This document shows, piece by piece, positions 378-12,225 of a stretch of DNA of 38,469 bases. The notes below the pieces were generated by a model that did not search any database, was not told where the DNA came from, and saw only the letters and a list, made by a program, of their open reading frames with translations. Position 1 is the stretch's first letter, and each line of letters opens with the position of its first letter. The stretch spans positions 1 to 38,469 of the forward strand of contig JAIORY010000219.1 in assembly GCA_021107915.1 (NCBI GenBank), read 5' to 3'. Source of the DNA: Bacteroidales bacterium. GTDB taxonomy: Bacteria > Bacteroidota > Bacteroidia > Bacteroidales > JAIORY01. A program made the position numbers and the translations under genes.

Positions 378-1481
378 ATGAAAACGACAGAAAACACAAT
401 TCCACTTTTAGCTACACATCCGGGGAAAGTTCTTTTAGATGAAATTAAAGCAAATGATTTTACTCAAAGTGATTTTGCAAAGAAAATTGGTTTAAAGAAA
501 AGTCAGTTAAATGAAATTATAAAACGGAAAAGAAATATTAATGCTGAGTTGGCTATTTTATTAGAAAAAACATTGAATATTGATGCAGAATATTGGTTAG
601 AAATTCAAAAGAATTATGATTTAGACAAAGCTCGAATTAATATTAAGAATCAGCAAAGATTAGAAGCAATTGAGCAATGGAAATTTATAGAAAACAAAAT
701 TGCCACTTCATTTTTAAAGAAAGAAAAGGTATTAAGTGGAGATCCCATTGAAGATATAATTGCCGTCAAGAAAATATATAATGTGCAAAATTTTGAAGAA
801 TTAGCCAAATTAAATGCAAAACCTGCTTACGCCAGATTTAGAAAATCAACAAAATTAGAGATTGATCCAATTAATATTATTGGGTGGGTGAAATTACTTC
901 ACTTTAATGCAAGTCGGATATTTGTTGAAAAATTTGACTACGATAAAAAAAACGAATTAATTACAAAACTTAAACAGATTTTAAGAATAAACAAAAATAC
1001 TTTAGTGACAGTACAACTAACATTAGCAGATTTTGGAATTAAATTAATCTATCAGAGAAAAGGTGACAAAACACCTGTTGATGGAATCTCTTTTTGGAGT
1101 AATGGTAGCCCGGCAATTGGCATGTCTTTAAGACATAGTAGATTGGATAATTTTGCTTTTACACTTTTTCATGAATTAGGTCATATTTTTGAACATCTTC
1201 CAAATAACAATAAAGCCGAATTTGTTGATTTAATTGCTTCCAAAGAACAAAAAGATTACAAGAAATCAAAAGAAGAGAAAGAAGCTGATTTATTTGCACA
1301 AAAAAATATGATCGAATCTAAAAATTGGAAAGTTTTCTTTCTTAATCAAAGATTTGATGATAGAAGTATTATAGAATTTGCAAAAGAAAATGAAATTCAC
1401 CCATGTATTGTCAGGGGAAGAATTTGTTTTACGACAGGTTTTTATAAAGCAAAAACATCAATTGATTATTCAATTTATTAA
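378..1481 (+). CDS. Fusion protein: HigA/XRE-family HTH domain plus ImmA/IrrE-type (M78, COG2856) zinc metallopeptidase domain
   Basis: N-terminus HPGKVLLDEI...SQLNEIIKRKRNINAELAILLEKTLNIDAEYWLEIQKNYDL is a HigA-type HTH. C-terminal part carries the HEXXH motif FHELGHIFEH followed by EKEADLFA, as in ImmA/IrrE peptidases. Confidence 0.8.
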   Translation: MKTTENTIPLLATHPGKVLLDEIKANDFTQSDFAKKIGLKKSQLNEIIKRKRNINAELAILLEKTLNIDAEYWLEIQKNYDLDKARINIKNQQRLEAIEQWKFIENKIATSFLKKEKVLSGDPIEDIIAVKKIYNVQNFEELAKLNAKPAYARFRKSTKLEIDPINIIGWVKLLHFNASRIFVEKFDYDKKNELITKLKQILRINKNTLVTVQLTLADFGIKLIYQRKGDKTPVDGISFWSNGSPAIGMSLRHSRLDNFAFTLFHELGHIFEHLPNNNKAEFVDLIASKEQKDYKKSKEEKEADLFAQKNMIESKNWKVFFLNQRFDDRSIIEFAKENEIHPCIVRGRICFTTGFYKAKTSIDYSIY

Positions 1482-1772: not shown

Positions 1773-3428
1773 TTGAGAAACGAAAAAAACATTAAAGACA
1801 TATTACGAGATTTGCTAAGTCAAGATTATGAAAATGAGATATTAGAATTTAAGGAGGCAAAAAACGGATATGATTTCAATAGACTCGGAAAGTATTTTTC
1901 TGCACTTTGCAATGAAGCGAATTTAAAAAATCAATCCCCTGCTTGGTTGGTTTTTGGTGTAAGAGATAAAAATAAAAAGATTATTGGCACTCAATTTAGG
2001 ACGAATAAAGCAAACCTGCATAAATTGAAAGCAGAAGTTGCAAATCACACTACCAACCGCATTACTTTTATAGAGATATATGAGTTTAACACACCAGATG
2101 GTAGAGTTGTTTTATTTGAAATTCCTACCGCTCCGAAAGGTATCCCTGTTTCATGGAAAGGCCATTATTACGGTAGAGATGGAGAAGAACTTAATGCCCT
2201 AAATCTGGAAGAAATTGAACGAATACGTATGCAATCCAACGAGGAAGATTGGAGTATTAAAATATGCAAAGGTGCTGATTTAAGAGATTTATCACAGGAA
2301 GCTATTTTAAAAGCTCGTTCTAATTTTAAAACTAAAAATCCAAATCTAAACAAAGAAATAAACAATTGGGATGATATTACATTTTTAAATAAGGCAAAAG
2401 TATGTATTAAAGGAAAAATTACTCGTGCAGCGATTTTACTGCTTGGTAAGTCTGAATCAGAACATTTCATTTCTCCTGCCACAGCTAAAATTACATGGAT
2501 ATTAAAAGACAGGGATAACATAGAAAAAGATTATGCACACTTTACCTGTCCTCTTCTTTTGAATACTGAAGAAGTTCATCAAAAAATACGAAATTTAAAA
2601 TATCGTTATTTGAAAGAAGGAACACTTTTTCCTGAAGAAGTTGATCAATTTGATTCTTACATTATTCGTGAAGCTTTGAATAATTGTATTGCACATCAAG
2701 ATTATTCTTTAGGTGGAAAAATTTCTGTAATTGAAAATGAAGATGGCAATTTGATTTTTAGTAATGCTGGTAAGTTTATTCCTGAAAGCGTCGAAGAAGT
2801 AATTATTTCTGATTCGCCTGAATATAGGTATAGAAATAAATTTTTAACAGATGCAATGGTCAACTTAAACATGATAGATAGTATCGGTAGTGGAATAAAA
2901 AAAATGTTTAATATTCAGAAAGAAAAGTTTTTTCCATTACCTGACTACGAGATAAAGAATAATAAAGTGAAGGTACGTTTTGTAGGTAAAGTAATGGATG
3001 TTAACTATGCCAGAAAATTGGTTACTATGCCAAACTTAAATTTATTGGATATCATTTTACTTGATAAAGTAGTTAAAAGAAAAACTTTATGTAATATTGA
3101 AATTAAACATTTGAAAAATAAAAATTTAATAGAAGGACGAAAACCTAATTTTTATGTTTCTATGTCTGTGGCAAAGGCTACTGGAGAACAGAGTGATTAT
3201 ATTAAACAGAGAGGTATTGATGATGAATATTGTCAAAAGATGATTTTGGATTATTTGAAAGAATTTGGCAAAGGAAAAAGTTCGGATTTTAAAAAAGTTC
3301 TTATTGACAAGTTATCAAATTCATTAAATGAAAAAAGGAAAGTTAATAAAATTAGAAATGTTTTACAGAAGCTTAGAAAAGATGGAAAAATAGTTATTAA
3401 GGGAAAGTATTGGAAAATTGCTATTTAG
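1773..3428 (+). CDS. AlbA_2 (Schlafen-like DNA-binding) plus HATPase_c_4 plus C-terminal wHTH protein, usually annotated as putative transcriptional regulator or RecG-like ATP-binding protein
   Basis: N-terminus ENEILEFKEAKNGYDF...WLVFGVRDKNKKIIG fits the AlbA_2 pattern. The central part IIREALNNCIAHQDYSLGGKISV...IDSIGSGIKKM fits HATPase_c_4. TTG start with no in-frame ATG upstream of the domain. Confidence 0.7.
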   Translation: MRNEKNIKDILRDLLSQDYENEILEFKEAKNGYDFNRLGKYFSALCNEANLKNQSPAWLVFGVRDKNKKIIGTQFRTNKANLHKLKAEVANHTTNRITFIEIYEFNTPDGRVVLFEIPTAPKGIPVSWKGHYYGRDGEELNALNLEEIERIRMQSNEEDWSIKICKGADLRDLSQEAILKARSNFKTKNPNLNKEINNWDDITFLNKAKVCIKGKITRAAILLLGKSESEHFISPATAKITWILKDRDNIEKDYAHFTCPLLLNTEEVHQKIRNLKYRYLKEGTLFPEEVDQFDSYIIREALNNCIAHQDYSLGGKISVIENEDGNLIFSNAGKFIPESVEEVIISDSPEYRYRNKFLTDAMVNLNMIDSIGSGIKKMFNIQKEKFFPLPDYEIKNNKVKVRFVGKVMDVNYARKLVTMPNLNLLDIILLDKVVKRKTLCNIEIKHLKNKNLIEGRKPNFYVSMSVAKATGEQSDYIKQRGIDDEYCQKMILDYLKEFGKGKSSDFKKVLIDKLSNSLNEKRKVNKIRNVLQKLRKDGKIVIKGKYWKIAI

Positions 3429-3582: not shown

Positions 3583-3610
3583 TTTTAAAGTTTTGTTATA
3601 TAAAAATTTA

Positions 3611-3705
3611 CAGAATAAGATTGTAATTGTTTTTTTTACATTTATCATTATTGAGGAAATGTAGAATTTAAAATAATAAATGACAAACTTTCTTCTAAAT
3701 CTTAA
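3611..3705. repeat. Island junction repeat R1, copy b
   Basis: Direct repeat of 171-264, here contiguous with R2. Confidence 0.9.
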
Positions 3706-3771
3706 ATTATCTTGCTTATTATATCTTTTTTACATAAGTTTGTAACAGAATTTGAAGTTGAATAATTTCAG
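3704..3771. repeat. Island promoter module R2, copy b (contains -7 box TAAGTTTG at 3735-3742)
   Basis: Same 68-nt module as 1571-1638, about 100 nt upstream of the TIR gene ATG. Confidence 0.75.
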
Positions 3772-3840
3772 ATATACTAATCTTAACAGATATGCAAAGC
3801 AATAGCTGCTCAGAAGTAGCTGGCACAAATTAGAAAACCT

Positions 3841-4692
3841 ATGGAAAACCAAGAATTTAAATACGATATAGCATTATCATTCGCAGGTGAAGACCGCGAG
3901 TACGTAAACAAAGTAGCAAATTTGTTAAAAGAAAAAGACGTCAAAGTTTTTTATGACTTGTTTGAAGAAGAAGATTTATGGGGGAAGGATTTGGGTGTTC
4001 ATTTTGACTTTGTATATCGAAAAAGCGCACGATATTGTATACCATTTATTTCATCTAGTTACAAAGAAAAAATTTGGACTAGTCATGAAATCAAAACTGC
4101 AATATCAAGAGCCATAGAATCCAATCACGAGTATATACTTCCTGCAAGATTTGATAACACCGAAATAGATGGCATTAGACCTACTTTAGGCTTCATTGAC
4201 CTCAGAAAAAACACACCAGAACAACTAGCCAATAAAATCTTAAAGAAGCTTGAAAAGGAACCTTCTATACCTGTAACTGAAAAAGAACAAGAAACAGATG
4301 GAAACATTTTTGCTTCAGTTTATGTCATTACATACGACCAAGTGAACGTTCATGAAGTATCAATAGGTGTTACAATGACGAATGTAATGAAGGAACATAG
4401 ATATTTTAATGAACCAAGCTTCTTGCTATCTGAGGCTGTGATTGGCAATGCAGACGCCTTCTATTTAATAGATAAAATCGAACCAATTAAATTCCCTATA
4501 AAACTTGAATATGGTGAGGTAGCAAAAGCTTCTTATAGATTAAAATATGAATCAAAAGATGGTTTTTGGGAAAAACTTTCAAAAGACGCATTTTTCCAAG
4601 CTGAAGTAACAACTACTGTTGGAGAAAGGTATAAATCAAATAAGGTAAAAGCCCAAATGGTATTAGATTCTTTTGGAATGATAAAAAAATAA
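3841..4692 (+). CDS. TIR-domain protein (TIR_2/ThsB-like N-terminal domain, about 140 aa) with an unassigned C-terminal domain of about 130 aa
   Basis: YDIALSFAGEDREYVNKVANLLKEKDVKVFYD...IPFISSSYKEKIWTSHEIKTAI is a bacterial TIR signature, including the conserved Glu (E83 in WTSHE). I cannot assign residues ~155-283 to any family. Confidence 0.8.
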   Translation: MENQEFKYDIALSFAGEDREYVNKVANLLKEKDVKVFYDLFEEEDLWGKDLGVHFDFVYRKSARYCIPFISSSYKEKIWTSHEIKTAISRAIESNHEYILPARFDNTEIDGIRPTLGFIDLRKNTPEQLANKILKKLEKEPSIPVTEKEQETDGNIFASVYVITYDQVNVHEVSIGVTMTNVMKEHRYFNEPSFLLSEAVIGNADAFYLIDKIEPIKFPIKLEYGEVAKASYRLKYESKDGFWEKLSKDAFFQAEVTTTVGERYKSNKVKAQMVLDSFGMIKK

Positions 4693-4793: not shown

Positions 4794-7415
4794 TCATCTC
4801 CCCACCACACAAGTCTTTTTATAATGCCTCACTTTGCCATTCAGATCAAAGATTTCAAAGTAAATAATATAAATTCCGATATTGGCTTTTTCATTATTTT
4901 GATTGATACCATCCCACGAAAAACCTCCTTTTGTTCCAAGCAATTCGTTTCTGATTAGGTTTTTTGTTAGTTTTCCGGCGGAGTTAAAAATTGTAATATT
5001 TGCTGTGTAACCGGAACTTTCAAATTTGTAATTTATATTTAAAATATCATCAAAGCCATCTGCATTTGGTGAGAAAATTTCAGGGGAAATACTTACCGGA
5101 TCTTCAATATCTTCTTCTTTGGTAAATTGAGAATTTTCAAAAGCCGGAGTTCCAAAACCGCTTTGCTGTGAAGCCGAATGCCAGTTGGTTTTATCATTTG
5201 CAGGTCGGTTATAATTAATTCTTTCCAGAGCAACGCCATCATAAAAATTAAGCAAAGGAAACTGCATTTCTTCGGAGTATTCAAAAATATCAATAATAAG
5301 ATCGTTTTTATTTTTTATTAATGAAATTCCTTTGTCGTTATTATACGAAGGAAAAGATTCAACCTTAATAAAACCATCGGGATTGGAAGTGTAAAATTGT
5401 TGTTTAACGATATCAGGATTTTTGCTAAGAACAAAATAATCTTCAGGAAATATTAATTTCCCATTTTCGCTTATGTTTTTCGTGATGGTGTCGGGAGGAT
5501 TTGGAGGGGTTTTCTTTACGGAAGAAATTTTAAGGTTTTTGAGATCAATAATTTTATTTGAACGATTGTAAATCTCAACATAATCCACGCCATCAGCAAG
5601 CGGATTAAACAAAATTTCGTTTATCACAATATCGTTATTTTCTGTTGTTTGAGGAATGCCGAGCCGGGTATTGCTATAAGTTTCCAAAGGTATTCCTGAG
5701 CAATTTAAAATATCTTCAACAATATCCAAAGTATAAATAATTCCCTCACTCATATCTGTTGAAAACTCCAAAATCACACTTTTAAAACCTTGTGAATTTA
5801 TTATAATATTTTGCGGTTTTCCAATGCCGTTATCAATTTTATAAGCATTAATGTTTAACACAGAAAGGCTGTCCATGTTTTGGTCGAAAGAAAGCTCAAT
5901 TGTTTTTGGATTTATGTAAATAGTATTATCAATTTTCGGAGGAATATCTTCGATAGAAAAAACAGAATTTTCGCTTCCGGGAGTGCCGCCATAATCGTTG
6001 TTTGCAGCTTTCCAGTTTTCATTTCCACCGCAAGGATTAAAAGGATCAATTTGTTCTAACGACCATCCACCATCTTCTTTTTCAGGATTATTGTACCAGT
6101 CATCGGAATATGAAATGTATGAAATTAAGTTGCCGTTTTGATTTCGTAAAATTATTTCCTGTCCGGAATTTGTTAAAGAAAAACTCGAAAAACCATAAAA
6201 ATCACCAAAGAAAGAAAACAAAGTTGCGGCAGTTTCTTTTCCGATAATCAAGTATTCTCCCGGCTCAATAAAAACATCTGAAAAAACCTTTTCACTCGTC
6301 CCGATAATCAACATCCAATTATTAAGATCAATGGGCAGGGGAGAGGTATTGTACAATTCGAGGTATTCATATTCCGGCATGTTGACCGGAGGACTGGGAT
6401 CAGCCATAATCTCGTTTATCACGATGTCGTTTCGCTGAGCGATATAATACGAAAATTCAATATTTACCGGCGAAATAGTGTTTTCTGAAAAGTCTTTTAT
6501 ACCGGAGATATTTAAAATATTTATCTCTCCGTTGGGAAAAGATGATGAAAATTCAAGGTGAACAAGCGAGGGATCAGATTCATTTCTTGTCGCATTTTCC
6601 GGTTTACCGATATTATTATTTGCTGTGTAATTATTTATGTTTTCTGAAGATAACCGATCTACTCCTTCCGAAAATTTAATATCAAGTTTGTTTTGCGAAA
6701 TTGTGTTTACAGAAACTACTTCCGGTGGAATGGTATCAATTAAAATATCACCAACATAAAAATTATCGAAATACATTTTACTGCTGTTGCTTGAGGTATA
6801 TTTGCAGAAAACCCCAAAAGAATTTGTGGTATTTATTTCGTTATCGGTGCCTTCAGTTTCAGCCTGAAAATTATTTCCTCCGGCAGGATCAATAAAAATT
6901 TTCCATAAAGCATTTTCGTTTCGTGTAATTTTTACGGATATTTCAAAAGAACCGGACAATAATCCTTCAGTACCCCGACAAACCGAAATATGCTCATCAC
7001 CGGCTTGTCTGAACAACTCAATTGCATCATCTGAACCTGATTCACCAAATTGCAAATAATATCCGTTTAAAGGCAAATCAAGATCAGTTTGATCAGAAAC
7101 CAAATATACACGTGCGTAATTATTTGCTGATGGGCTGAAAGAAAGTTTTATCCAAAAACGCCATTCGGTTTCATTAAGCCCGGTATTTGGTGTAGATAAA
7201 AAGGATTCTCCGGCATCTGTTGCATTCAGTTGTAATTGAAGATCAGGATTGATAATAAAACTCTCTGGATTGCCTGACCAAAGTGGATCATTAGTAAAAT
7301 CTCCATCCGAGAAATCGTCATTTATTTGAGCCATCAGGGAAACTGAAAAAAGAAAAGAGATTAATAAAAAAAATTGTTTTTTGGGAAATCGAAGGTAGAT
7401 TTGGATATTATTCAT
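4794..7415 (-). CDS. Secreted lamin-tail-domain (LTD x2) protein with a gliding-motility/T9SS type-B C-terminal sorting domain
   Basis: N-terminal signal/TM segment. Two INEI(M/L)..P......EY(L/V)E(L/I)YN LTD cores. C-terminus FSPNADGFDDIL...WDGINQNNEKANIGIYIIYFEI...VVGR resembles the CHU_C/TIGR04131 domain. Confidence 0.6.
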   Translation of the reverse strand: MNNIQIYLRFPKKQFFLLISFLFSVSLMAQINDDFSDGDFTNDPLWSGNPESFIINPDLQLQLNATDAGESFLSTPNTGLNETEWRFWIKLSFSPSANNYARVYLVSDQTDLDLPLNGYYLQFGESGSDDAIELFRQAGDEHISVCRGTEGLLSGSFEISVKITRNENALWKIFIDPAGGNNFQAETEGTDNEINTTNSFGVFCKYTSSNSSKMYFDNFYVGDILIDTIPPEVVSVNTISQNKLDIKFSEGVDRLSSENINNYTANNNIGKPENATRNESDPSLVHLEFSSSFPNGEINILNISGIKDFSENTISPVNIEFSYYIAQRNDIVINEIMADPSPPVNMPEYEYLELYNTSPLPIDLNNWMLIIGTSEKVFSDVFIEPGEYLIIGKETAATLFSFFGDFYGFSSFSLTNSGQEIILRNQNGNLISYISYSDDWYNNPEKEDGGWSLEQIDPFNPCGGNENWKAANNDYGGTPGSENSVFSIEDIPPKIDNTIYINPKTIELSFDQNMDSLSVLNINAYKIDNGIGKPQNIIINSQGFKSVILEFSTDMSEGIIYTLDIVEDILNCSGIPLETYSNTRLGIPQTTENNDIVINEILFNPLADGVDYVEIYNRSNKIIDLKNLKISSVKKTPPNPPDTITKNISENGKLIFPEDYFVLSKNPDIVKQQFYTSNPDGFIKVESFPSYNNDKGISLIKNKNDLIIDIFEYSEEMQFPLLNFYDGVALERINYNRPANDKTNWHSASQQSGFGTPAFENSQFTKEEDIEDPVSISPEIFSPNADGFDDILNINYKFESSGYTANITIFNSAGKLTKNLIRNELLGTKGGFSWDGINQNNEKANIGIYIIYFEIFDLNGKVRHYKKTCVVGR

Positions 7416-8643: not shown

Positions 8644-10374
8644 ATGAAAAAAATCTTATTAACATTTAGTTTATTTCTTGCGATAGGAATAAGTATTAAT
8701 TCCTATGCATGTACTAATTACCTGATTACTAAAGGCGCATCAGTTGATGGTTCAACGATGATCTCTTATGCTGCAGATTCTCATGTCCTTTTCGGAGAAC
8801 TATATCACTGGCCTTCTGCCACATACCCCGAAGGTGCAATGATGGACATTTATGAATGGGATACAGGTGAATATCTGGGTCAGATTGAGCAAGTTAGCGA
8901 AACATTTAATGTTATTGGAAACATGAATGAGTATCAAGTTGCCATTGGAGAAACAACTTATGGCGGTCGTTCAGAGCTGAGTAAACAACCCGGTGCAATT
9001 ATGGATTACGGAAGTCTTATGTTTGTTGCTTTGCAAAGATCAAAATCAGCACGCGAAGCTATTAAAATCACAGCCGAGCTAATGGAAAGATATGGTTATT
9101 ACAGCTCTGGTGAGTCTTTTTCGGTTTCCGATAAAAATGAAGTATGGATAATGGAACTTATTGGAAAAGGCAAAGAAGAAAAAGGTGCTGTCTGGGTTGC
9201 CAGAAGAGTACCTGATGGTTATGTTTGTGCTCATGCTAATCAGGCAAGGATAACAACTTTTCCTCTTGAAAACAAAACAACTTCTATTTCTTCCGATAAT
9301 CTTGATATGATATTTGACAAAGATATAGAATGTGTTTATGCTGCTGATGTTATTTCTTTTGCCAGAAAAAATAGCTGGTACAAAGGAAAAGATAAATATT
9401 TCAGCTTTTCTGATACTTATGCACCGGTTGATTTTGGTGGAGCACGTTTCTGTGAAATTCGTGTTTGGACTATGTTTAATGCTGTTGCTGATGGTATGGA
9501 TCAATATTGGGATTATTGTAAAGGTCATATAAAACATGATAAAAAATATGTTGATGGCAGGAAAAATATCAATCAATATGCAACCAACAGAATGCCACTT
9601 TGGATAAAACCGGATAAAAAGGTTTCTGTTCATGATATGATGATGTTTATGAGAGATCATCTTGAAGGTACCGAGCTTGACATGAGAAAAGATATTGGTG
9701 CCGCACCATTTGAGGTTCCTTACCGATGGCGTCCTTTAACATGGAAAGTTGATGATGTAGGTTATTGTAATGAAAGAGCAACAGCTACACAGCAAACAGG
9801 ATTTTCATTTGTTACTCAGTCACGGTCATGGTTGCCTGATGAAATTGGTGGAATTTTCTGGATGAGTGTTGATGACGCTGCCAGTAGTGTTTATGTTCCT
9901 TTTTATTCAAGTATTACAAATGTGCCTCATACTTTTGAAAGAGGAAATGGAAAAATGATGGAATGGTCTGATGATGCAGCTTTTTGGGTATTTAATCAGG
10001 TAAGCAATTTTGCATACACACGCTATAACCTTATTCATCCCGAAATTGAAAAAGTACAATTTGCATTGGAAAATGAATTTATTGAATTCACAAATGCTGT
10101 TGATGCAGGTGCTTTTGAACTTCATAAAAAAGATAAAAAACTTGCTGTTGAATATCTTACAAATTACTCAATAAATCAGGGAAACCGTGTTGTTTATACA
10201 TGGAAGAAGTTATATCAACATCTTTTTATGAGGTTTATGGATGGTAATGTTAAAGAACCAAATCCGGGTAAACAAAATCCGAAACTCGAACAACCCGGCT
10301 ATGATGAAGAATGGTATCGTTTAATAATTGAAAAAACCGGAGATAGATTTAAGGTTATCGGTTCAGCGCATTAG
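8644..10374 (+). CDS. Peptidase family C69 dipeptidase (secreted), paralog 1
   Basis: Signal peptide followed by the nucleophile Cys in YACTNYLITKGASVDGSTMISY, then conserved blocks GESFSVSDKNEVWIMELIG and VWVARRVPDGYVCAHANQARI. Confidence 0.8.
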   Translation: MKKILLTFSLFLAIGISINSYACTNYLITKGASVDGSTMISYAADSHVLFGELYHWPSATYPEGAMMDIYEWDTGEYLGQIEQVSETFNVIGNMNEYQVAIGETTYGGRSELSKQPGAIMDYGSLMFVALQRSKSAREAIKITAELMERYGYYSSGESFSVSDKNEVWIMELIGKGKEEKGAVWVARRVPDGYVCAHANQARITTFPLENKTTSISSDNLDMIFDKDIECVYAADVISFARKNSWYKGKDKYFSFSDTYAPVDFGGARFCEIRVWTMFNAVADGMDQYWDYCKGHIKHDKKYVDGRKNINQYATNRMPLWIKPDKKVSVHDMMMFMRDHLEGTELDMRKDIGAAPFEVPYRWRPLTWKVDDVGYCNERATATQQTGFSFVTQSRSWLPDEIGGIFWMSVDDAASSVYVPFYSSITNVPHTFERGNGKMMEWSDDAAFWVFNQVSNFAYTRYNLIHPEIEKVQFALENEFIEFTNAVDAGAFELHKKDKKLAVEYLTNYSINQGNRVVYTWKKLYQHLFMRFMDGNVKEPNPGKQNPKLEQPGYDEEWYRLIIEKTGDRFKVIGSAH

Positions 10375-10638: not shown

Positions 10639-12225
10639 ATGAAAAAAGTAACTCTTCTAATTTTATCATTTTTTCTCTCAAGCATAGTCTTCCCATGCAC
10701 AAATTTTATCGTTACCAAGGGTGCTTCCGCTGATGGGTCAACATTTTTAGCATACACTAATGATGGTGAATGGATATATCATCTTGATAAAACACCGGCT
10801 AAAAACCATAAATTCGGAGATTCTTTAGAGTTTTCAGGAAGATTTGGTGCAAAAGGTAAAATACATCAAGTATCACACACTTATGCTGTTATTGGATTTC
10901 AAATGAATGAACATCAGGTAGCTGTTGGAGAAACTACTTTTGTTGGAAGAGAAGAACTTTGGAATAAATCCAAATATCTTGAATACTGGCATTTAATGCG
11001 CTTAGCTTTAGAAAGGGCAAAAACAGCAAGAGAGGCTATAAAAATTATGACAGAATTGGTTGAACAATATGGCTACGGAAGCGAGGGAGAATCTTTTTCA
11101 ATTGCCGATCCCAATGAAGCATGGATACTCGAAATGATAGGAACAGGAGATGGCGGTGAAGGTGCTGTGTGGGTAGCTGTCAAAATCCCTGACGGATATA
11201 TTTCAGCTCATGCAAATATGGCAAGGATTGGAGAATTTTCATTAGATGATCCGGAAAATTGTTTGTATTCAGCTAATATAATTTCTTTTGCAGTTGAGAA
11301 TGGATATTACGATACTGATTCAGGTGAGCCGTTTCGATTTAATGAGGCATACTGTCCTTCTACTCCCGAGCGTTTAAAATATTGTGAATCCAGAGTTTGG
11401 AGTTTGTTTAACAGAGCAGCACCATCAAAAAACCTTTCAAGTGATTATTGCCGTGGAGTTAAAAATACCGAAAGATATCCATTATTCATTAAGCCTGATA
11501 AAAAAATTAAACTGGAAAATGTTATGGATCTTATCAGAGATCATTATGAAGGAACTGATTTCGATATGACTAAAGGCATTGATGCCGGTCCTTTCGGATC
11601 ACCAAGCAGATGGGGTCCACTTTCGTGGGAAAATGATTCGCTAAAATACTCCTGGGAAAGACCAATTTCTATATTCAATTCTGCATTTTCATATATCGCA
11701 CAATTGCGATCATGGTTGCCCAATGAGCTTGGTGGGATTGCATGGTTCGGAGTGGATGATACTTTTTTTTCATGTTATTTCCCTGTTTATTGTGGAGTAA
11801 CTGAAATATCTGAACCTTTTACAAAAGGTGATATCCGTAACTTTTCATGGGAGTCAGCTTGGTGGACATTTAATTTTGTTTCCAATTTTTCCAATCTTAA
11901 ATATTCTTATATGAAAAAGGATATTCAAAAAGTTCAACATAAACTTGAATCAAAATTTATTTCCGATCAGGATTCTATTACAGAGATTGCCTTGAATTTG
12001 AATGAAGAAGAGCGAATTAAATTTCTCACAGAATATTCATGTAATCAAGGGAAACTGGCTCACAAAGAATGGGTTGAATTGGCAGAGTTTTTGATAATGA
12101 AATATAATGATGGATATTTAAAAAATGAAAATGGTAAAATAACGTCTCCCGGATATCCTGATGAGTGGAAACAACAAATGATAAATATTTATCCTGAGAA
12201 ATTTAATATTAATCGGAACCGGTAA
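10639..12225 (+). CDS. Peptidase family C69 dipeptidase (secreted), paralog 2
   Basis: FPCTNFIVTKGASADGSTF nucleophile block, GESFSIADPNEAWILEMIG, VWVAVKIPDGYISAHANMARI. Colinear with paralog 1. Confidence 0.8.
   Translation: MKKVTLLILSFFLSSIVFPCTNFIVTKGASADGSTFLAYTNDGEWIYHLDKTPAKNHKFGDSLEFSGRFGAKGKIHQVSHTYAVIGFQMNEHQVAVGETTFVGREELWNKSKYLEYWHLMRLALERAKTAREAIKIMTELVEQYGYGSEGESFSIADPNEAWILEMIGTGDGGEGAVWVAVKIPDGYISAHANMARIGEFSLDDPENCLYSANIISFAVENGYYDTDSGEPFRFNEAYCPSTPERLKYCESRVWSLFNRAAPSKNLSSDYCRGVKNTERYPLFIKPDKKIKLENVMDLIRDHYEGTDFDMTKGIDAGPFGSPSRWGPLSWENDSLKYSWERPISIFNSAFSYIAQLRSWLPNELGGIAWFGVDDTFFSCYFPVYCGVTEISEPFTKGDIRNFSWESAWWTFNFVSNFSNLKYSYMKKDIQKVQHKLESKFISDQDSITEIALNLNEEERIKFLTEYSCNQGKLAHKEWVELAEFLIMKYNDGYLKNENGKITSPGYPDEWKQQMINIYPEKFNINRNR

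Follow-up and report, generated by a model that had tools for sequence, protein, structure and literature searches.

The forward strand of contig JAIORY010000219.1 (GCA_021107915.1), from the metagenome-assembled genome (MAG) of a Bacteroidales bacterium, carries at 3841..4692 a gene for a protein of 283 aa in which an N-terminal TIR domain is followed by a C-terminal beta-sandwich. The whole contig, 38,469 nt long, was analysed and is referred to here as the window. The catalytic motif of the TIR domain is intact, each of the two domains is combined with other partners in other proteins, and the gene has no conserved partner gene. By analogy with SpbK, a single-gene defence protein, the product is probably a self-contained, single-polypeptide abortive-infection NAD+ glycohydrolase (NADase), a reading held with somewhat better than even confidence.

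Domain anatomy of the protein

The gene was defined from the list of open reading frames (ORFs) and their translations. It starts with ATG, its stop codon lies within the interval, and the strand opposite 3841-4692 is full of stops. The translation holds the strings quoted in an earlier annotation of this DNA (the sequence-only reading), namely WTSHE, with E83, and IFASVYVITYDQVNVHEVSIGVTMTNV...ERYKSNKVKAQMV. That this is a real gene is clear from its 2,396 relatives in the database, of which the best 120 are full-length and 50-84% identical to the window protein. An identical database entry (P0001), from a Bacteroidales bacterium MAG, is annotated as 'TIR domain-containing protein'. The window protein has no transmembrane (TM) segment, no signal peptide and no secretion domain.

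The TIR domain comprises residues ~8-137 (3862..4251, forward strand). It is supported by Pfam TIR_2 (residues 10-129, E 9.3e-15), by PDB sequence matches and by Foldseek, and its mean pairwise identity within the family is 71%. A PDB sequence search with the window protein returned TIR chains only, the closest being the TIR domains of AbTir (7uwg/7uxu/8g83) and 7uxr. Foldseek with the full-length model likewise returned TIR structures only, with Brucella BtpA as the best match; BtpA, AbTir and SPARTA TIR-APAZ matched at E 1e-6 to 1e-4, and plant TIRs were also retrieved. E83, in the WxxxE motif W79-T-S-H-E83 (4075..4089, forward strand), aligns with the Glu of WTNYE in AbTir. In the WxxxE motif of AbTir both W204 and E208 are needed for NAD+ cleavage, and E208 is the catalytic residue (PMC10641520). 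Within the family of the window protein W79 is present in 43 of 43 full-length members and E83 in 42 of 43. The domain is predicted to cleave NAD+ as a glycohydrolase of the WxxxE type, like AbTir.

The best PADLOC match of the protein is PDC-S66 (E 9.6e-17), which covers the TIR part at profile positions 144-240 of 282. Matches to ThsB models are weak and partial, with E 1.3e-7 (ThsB1) and 2.2e-4 over ~100 and ~44 residues, respectively. The spbK model did not match the protein at E <= 0.01. The bSEFIR model did not match it either; TIR_2 was the only such domain detected, and no SEFIR domain was found.

The TIR domain is followed by a variable linker (residues 138-155, 4252..4305, forward strand) with a predicted local distance difference test score (pLDDT) of 53-74 in the full-length model and a column entropy of 1.84 bits, against 0.80 bits in the TIR domain. 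The cytoplasmic beta-sandwich occupies residues ~156-270 (4306..4650, forward strand) and was delimited from AlphaFold2 models. In the full-length model, built with the family alignment, pLDDT is ~90 across residues 170-280; modelled alone, the C-terminal domain reaches a pLDDT of 90.1 and a predicted TM-score (pTM) of 0.83 and comprises about nine strands plus a helix at its C-terminal end. The protein ends in a variable region (residues 271-283, 4651..4689, forward strand), which is helical at 271-279 in the AlphaFold2 models and has the highest entropy, 2.6 bits.

The C-terminal ~140 aa gave zero matches at the permissive thresholds of E <= 10 in Pfam and E <= 1 in NCBIfam, and zero in PADLOC at E <= 0.1. 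Foldseek with the isolated domain against PDB and BFVD (viral) retrieved no structure at E < 1e-3. The best matches were generic Ig-like sandwiches (E >= 1.9e-3, TM-score <= 0.48, ~10% identity), namely lumenal domains or subunits of TRAP, ApaG, the intracellular proteinase inhibitor of B. subtilis and transglutaminase barrels, none of which is taken to be a homolog. On these models the C-terminal domain is an autonomous Ig-like beta-sandwich with no recognisable close relative. The sequence-only reading had described a clear N-terminal bacterial TIR domain with the catalytic-type Glu E83 and a beta-rich C-terminal part that could not be placed in any family; both descriptions are borne out, and Foldseek on the AlphaFold model of the C-terminal region matched no well-known domain. 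Papers on domain-centric discovery (PMC13069673) and on bacterial Schlafens (PMC13056530) contain nothing on a TIR plus beta-sandwich protein.

Three conserved motifs, T-N-x5-R-Y-F-x-x-P-x-F (180-194), F-P-x-K-L-E-x-G-E (218-226) and T-T-x-G-E-x-x-x-S-N (257-267, in a conserved stretch spanning 254-267), alternate in the beta-sandwich with highly variable stretches (161-175, 208-217 and 228-252). The polar residues N181, R187, E223 and E262 are invariant within the family. Among the 43 members mean pairwise identity is 70.8% for the TIR domain and 44.4% for the beta-sandwich, and the TIR domain is the more conserved part in 99.9% of family pairs. Column entropy in the beta-sandwich is 1.75 bits, against the 0.80 bits of the TIR domain.

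Two-way modularity of the TIR clade and the beta-sandwich

A scan of one genome per species yielded 482 relatives of the TIR domain, and the best 80 loci were used for locus analysis. The TIR plus beta-sandwich architecture is shared by 22 of these 80 loci, two of which (L019 and L023) are cut at contig ends. In L022 and L024-L080 the TIR domain is 53-63% identical to that of the window protein and the similarity ends at about residue 140. The partner domains of this TIR clade fall into at least nine recurring unrelated groups, with a dozen or more singletons in addition. AbiJ_NTD3 (E 5e-53) lies N-terminal to the TIR domain in 17 loci (e.g. L022; TIR identity 54-64%), an arrangement that is also that of the PADLOC candidate PDC-S66, and an Ig/CarboxypepD_reg-like region is joined to the TIR domain in nine. 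Further partners are a PQQ beta-propeller, NYN, a PsbP-like domain, multi-TM regions and several unknown domains. The possibility that other C-terminal partners are distant homologs of the beta-sandwich was considered for three groups by profile-profile comparison (hhalign) and rejected at probabilities below 1%. In AbiJ proteins the position held here by the TIR domain is the effector position.

The beta-sandwich is shuffled as well. An exhaustive profile search against 1.84 billion representatives gave 157 clusters; a word-indexed search with the C-terminal profile gave 15 unannotated proteins and added little to this. By architecture, an N-terminal TM helix precedes the domain in 50 of 150 clusters. 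Another 41 consist of fragments or of the domain on its own, 26 have a short N-terminal extension, 16 an N-terminal 'G-N-x-x-I-Q...N-S-x-I-x-I-N' (GN) motif, eight other long N-termini and six a window-type TIR domain; tandem copies are additional. An N-terminal domain of the bSEFIR type is fused to the beta-sandwich in P0136 and P0194 (PADLOC bSEFIR, E 4e-42), and a TIR domain of the SpbK type in P0155 (PADLOC SpbK, E 1e-26). Tandem arrays were observed in P0158 (3,878 aa), with 11 matched stretches, and in P0142 (321 aa) and P0239 (437 aa), with two and three copies, respectively.

In 41 of the 50 TM fusions the beta-sandwich is on that side of the helix which is rich in K/R. This side is predicted to be cytoplasmic, which is where the beta-sandwich must also lie in the TIR fusions. 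Genes of the GN type and the TM type are usually the terminal gene of a short operon and are overlapped by the upstream gene by 4 nt. The upstream partners differ in sequence and typically end in a TM helix; they include an EEP-family (Exo_endo_phos) protein and small proteins with a GN-like motif of their own. Operons with the GN motif were found in L084 (3841-5594), L085, L086, L088 (2444-3469), L090 (2081-3141) and L091 (5408-6609). The beta-sandwich operon loci adjoin genes for MmeI-type restriction-modification (R-M), Fic and AAA_15 proteins. This arrangement suggests that the motif may be a homotypic adaptor tying the beta-sandwich to membrane-anchored partners.

Family distribution and genomic neighbourhood

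The 22 family loci are mostly from Bacteroidota (Flavobacterium, Pedobacter, Sphingobacterium, Segetibacter, Saprospiraceae, Cyclobacteriaceae and Paludibacter). Beyond this phylum they were found in Oleispira, in Limnohabitans and on one short contig of a Heimdallarchaeota MAG. The family occurs widely in Bacteroidota and Proteobacteria that live freely in soil, fresh water and the sea. The Asgard-binned contig (L019) is 1,569 nt long and carries a 54%-identical member, which could reflect horizontal transfer or a binning artefact. One database relative of the window protein is annotated as 'archaeon'.

ORF clustering within 8 kb of the 22 family genes detected no conserved neighbour. PADLOC and Pfam scans were applied to the 139 neighbours within 5 kb of family genes and identified type I R-M subunits, Eco57I/MmeI-type methylases, integrases, SNF2/ResIII, PLD, PIN_8, Piwi and further TIR genes. 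No neighbour family occurs in more than about five of the 22 loci, and Phage_integrase was matched by three of the 139 neighbours. The relatives that are 84% and 77% identical to the window protein have neighbours that differ from those in the window, and a search for a small ORF or TM partner flanking the TIR gene in the window found none. Because neither the 22 loci nor the two closest relatives share a conserved neighbour, and because there is no small partner ORF, the gene acts as a unit and is solo in the strict sense.

Individual loci show local arrangements of their own. In L082, the closest relative (84%), the gene for a 200-aa multi-pass membrane protein (1040-1642) overlaps the start of the TIR gene (1635-2486) by 8 nt, and a second TM/coiled-coil gene lies further upstream; both are absent beside the window copy. 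In L015 (2713-7878) hsdS and hsdR flank the TIR plus beta-sandwich gene, the junctions being overlapping or 4 nt long, and in L005 (9998-12373) and L008 (9995-12372) it is directly upstream of hsdM. This embedding in type I R-M operons recalls the PrrC-type guards of R-M systems.

Two co-oriented genes precede the TIR gene in the window. The first (378-1481, forward strand) encodes a fusion of HTH_3 and Peptidase_M78, here HTH-M78, that matches PADLOC PD-lambda-2B (E 1.1e-41) and HigA TIGR02607 (E 5e-17). PD-lambda-2B is the toxic HigA-like HTH-peptidase component of a three-gene, toxin-antitoxin-like abortive infection (Abi) system (PMC9519451). There is no HigB-like gene before the HTH-M78 gene, since the upstream 210 nt are repeat region. 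The second gene (1773-3428, forward strand, TTG start) encodes an AlbA_2 (Schlafen-type) domain with HATPase_c_4 and could serve defence or regulation in its own right. Bacterial Schlafen-domain proteins have recently been reported as antiviral effectors.

The AT-rich region upstream of the TIR gene (3606..3774, forward strand), its probable promoter, is a mosaic of two direct repeats. Positions 3606-3708 repeat 166-267 at 96-97% identity and positions 3696-3774 repeat 1563-1641 at 91% identity, so that repeat copies lie upstream of all three genes of the island (166-267, 1478-1641 and 3606-3774). An exact 26-mer, TATCTTTTTTACATAAGTTTGTAACA, is present at 1589-1614 and 3722-3747; it contains TAAGTTTG, a putative -7 box of the Bacteroidota type (consensus TAnnTTTG). 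Neither the remainder of the window nor the related loci contain the repeat. The repeats may be a shared promoter/operator or the scar of a separate 3.4-kb insertion of HTH-M78 and AlbA_2; a separate acquisition of this segment is suggested because the 166-267 and 3606-3708 copies bracket it exactly.

On the right the island is bounded by ordinary Bacteroidota genes. A large protein sorted by the type IX secretion system (LTD, Big_5, CHU_C) is encoded at 4794-7415 on the reverse strand and converges on the TIR gene, and two tandem Peptidase_C69 paralogs (8644-10374 and 10639-12225, forward strand) lie downstream of ribF. The rest of the window is housekeeping DNA (QueA, topoisomerase, LeuRS, IspD, TruB, RuvC and others). 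Positions 12341-38128 include two ORFs for 23S_rRNA_IVP (four-helix-bundle) proteins, one for DUF559 and one with a DpdF-like PADLOC match (E 5.6e-20), the one unrelated PADLOC match in this part. No tRNA genes were found in the window.

Proposed function, alternatives and known systems

NADase defences that consist of one protein, SpbK, bSEFIR and DSR2 among them, are useful models of how the recognition of a single phage component is converted directly into metabolic shutdown. In the mechanism proposed for the window protein, the C-terminal beta-sandwich would be a cytoplasmic recognition module that binds a cue associated with infection, most likely a multimeric phage protein, possibly near the inner membrane face. 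Binding would gather several copies of the protein, the TIR domains would assemble into an active oligomer, and the oligomer would deplete NAD+, so that phage replication stops and the infection is aborted. That the protein cleaves NAD+ and defends the cell, that the beta-sandwich is the sensor and that oligomerisation activates the TIR domains are all predictions from the features described above.

One of the two alternatives in the sequence-only reading was a new sensor/effector role for the C-terminal domain. The sensor half of this proposal is supported, as far as sequence analysis reaches, by the lack of any library assignment, the autonomous fold, the domain swaps and the faster divergence; the effector half is disfavoured, the swap pattern being unlike that of an effector. 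The beta-sandwich points to a sensor because it is the constant domain combined with exchangeable effector modules. A sensor-effector in one protein is the most economical reading. The TIR domain, whose catalytic motif is intact and which is strongly constrained, fills a slot that is exchangeable with TM helices, with SEFIR or with an enzyme encoded in trans, which would be the effector position. The beta-sandwich diverges faster than the TIR domain in the way recognition modules do. The membrane anchoring of its relatives hints, speculatively, that the cue is met at the inner membrane face.

A wider form of this proposal is possible, though well short of probable: the beta-sandwich might be a portable sensing module at the cytoplasmic membrane face, defining a multi-architecture defence family with a common trigger. 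It would then serve at least four outputs, namely the TIR domain described here, the bSEFIR-type domain or SpbK-type TIR, TM helices joined in cis and, in trans, partners anchored in the membrane. The last would include the EEP-family enzyme and would carry the matching 'G-N-x-x-I...N-S-x-I' motif.

Several observations weigh against the proposed abortive-infection NADase. The invariant N181, R187, E223 and E262 are no less compatible with a conserved ligand, a host factor or a small molecule than with a phage protein that evolves fast. The relatives of the beta-sandwich are for the most part small proteins anchored in the membrane and with no function assigned, so that the main role of the domain might lie outside defence. 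TIR domains of the AbTir type also produce cyclic ADP-ribose (cADPR) isomers, and a signalling role is compatible with the sequence. The island consists of three genes within housekeeping DNA, collections of phages and plasmids contained no full-length relative, and both the TIR plus beta-sandwich family and PDC-S66 are known from sequence alone.

Among single-gene systems the closest comparison is SpbK of ICEBs1 in Bacillus subtilis. It is a 267-aa TIR NADase whose non-TIR domain binds the portal protein of phage SPbeta; activation is thought to proceed through oligomerisation of the TIR domain, and defence is lost when the catalytic Glu is mutated (bioRxiv 10.1101/2024.12.23.630042). Like SpbK, the window protein is one polypeptide of similar size without a partner gene, made of a TIR domain with the catalytic Glu and a small non-TIR domain. 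The two differ in domain order, the sensor of SpbK being N-terminal, and in TIR lineage, and their non-TIR domains are unrelated. The bSEFIR protein of Bacillus sp. NIO-1130 is a validated single-gene SEFIR defence system, a type enriched in defence islands, and shares with the window protein an N-terminal effector of the TIR superfamily followed by a C-terminal accessory region. Its profile, however, has 412 positions, of which the C-terminal part does not match the beta-sandwich, and in the window protein the N-terminal domain is TIR_2. The window protein, matched by neither the spbK nor the bSEFIR profile, may thus work like these two proteins while belonging to neither family.

PDC-S66, a single-gene PADLOC candidate, has a TIR domain of the same clade; AbiJ_NTD3 lies N-terminal to it and there is no beta-sandwich, whereas the window protein begins directly with the TIR domain. 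TIR NADases of the AbTir/BtpA type are closest in solved structure and sequence and have the WxxxE motif in common with the window protein, but possess an N-terminal coiled-coil region, lack the beta-sandwich and are only ~25% identical.

A different trigger is envisaged if the beta-sandwich is a membrane-proximal or host-factor scaffold. The protein would then guard a host process, such as the envelope or, as PrrC does, an R-M system, or would have a role outside defence in NAD-linked signalling or toxin-like competition. Most homologs of the beta-sandwich are indeed TM-anchored or encoded beside TM partners, the gene of the closest relative overlaps that of a multi-pass membrane protein, three copies lie within type I R-M operons, and the invariant polar residues fit such a role. 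This alternative is plausible but clearly less likely than the model proposed above, as the window protein has neither a TM segment or signal peptide nor a membrane partner, and linkage to R-M is seen in just three to four of the 22 loci. It overlaps the single-polypeptide NADase model, from which only the trigger differs.

Thoeris, in which a bacterial TIR protein, ThsB, also acts in phage defence, was the frame chosen by the sequence-only reading. Its statement that a ThsA-type partner is lacking holds for the immediate neighbours and for the 20 other large ORFs that the window contains, but Thoeris is not the closest comparison, the single-protein TIR and SEFIR NADases fitting better. The protein could still be an orphan generator, its TIR domain producing a messenger of the cADPR type or otherwise derived from ADP-ribose that is read by an effector, ThsA-like or other, encoded elsewhere in the genome. 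The weak ThsB1 match and the nearest solved relatives, AbTir and 7uxr, which belong to TIR domains producing cADPR isomers, are in keeping with this, and the partner search spans the 38-kb contig, with the rest of the MAG lying outside it. We nevertheless regard such a generator as quite improbable. ThsB needs an adjacent ThsA to read its diffusible signal and Thoeris genes are adjacent by definition, yet no ThsA is encoded in the window or the 22 family loci, proteins of the SIR2, SLOG or Macro type are absent from the window, and the 22 members have no recurring neighbour family. The TIR domain is, moreover, interchangeable with TM helices and SEFIR in the domain network, which marks the effector position, and its clade is 53-77% identical across phyla, which would be unusual for ThsB sensor TIRs.

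A coupling of the TIR protein to the AlbA_2-HATPase_c_4 protein, to the HTH-M78 protein or to both as a three-gene system is very unlikely. The genes are co-oriented and each follows copies of one AT-rich sequence, possibly a sign that they are regulated together, and the resemblance of HTH-M78 to PD-lambda-2B links it to a toxin-antitoxin-like Abi component (PMC9519451). Searches with tblastn using both neighbours against all 82 fetched related loci, however, gave zero matches, and the 84% and 77% relatives have other neighbours. Between the genes lie 291 and 412 nt, and both of these gaps contain a promoter-like repeat; the outer repeats delimit exactly the HTH-M78 and AlbA_2 segment. For the same reasons the earlier suggestion that the AlbA_2-HATPase neighbour reads the TIR signal is not supported.

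A secreted or host-directed virulence TIR of the BtpA/TcpB/TirS type, interfering with eukaryotic Toll-like receptor signalling, is most unlikely: Brucella BtpA is the top Foldseek match and the source is a Bacteroidales MAG, but the protein lacks both a signal peptide and any secretion domain, the family lives in free-living environmental bacteria, its contexts are those of defence islands, and the network of its partner domains is of the kind seen in conflict systems inside cells.

These results leave the overall view of TIR-based immunity as it was, and a TIR domain joined to an unknown domain will be no great surprise to specialists. For most TIR proteins the sensing part has not been identified; here a confidently folded domain of ~115 aa is delimited as its candidate. 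The beta-sandwich has no entry in Pfam, NCBIfam or PADLOC and is a candidate new domain family for these databases. It is exchanged among several effector types and is joined here to a TIR clade that ranks among the best conserved in bacteria and is itself widely shuffled. The protein thereby offers a concrete putative sensor-effector pair, and the natural swap variants with TIR, SEFIR and TM partners make its trigger experimentally approachable.

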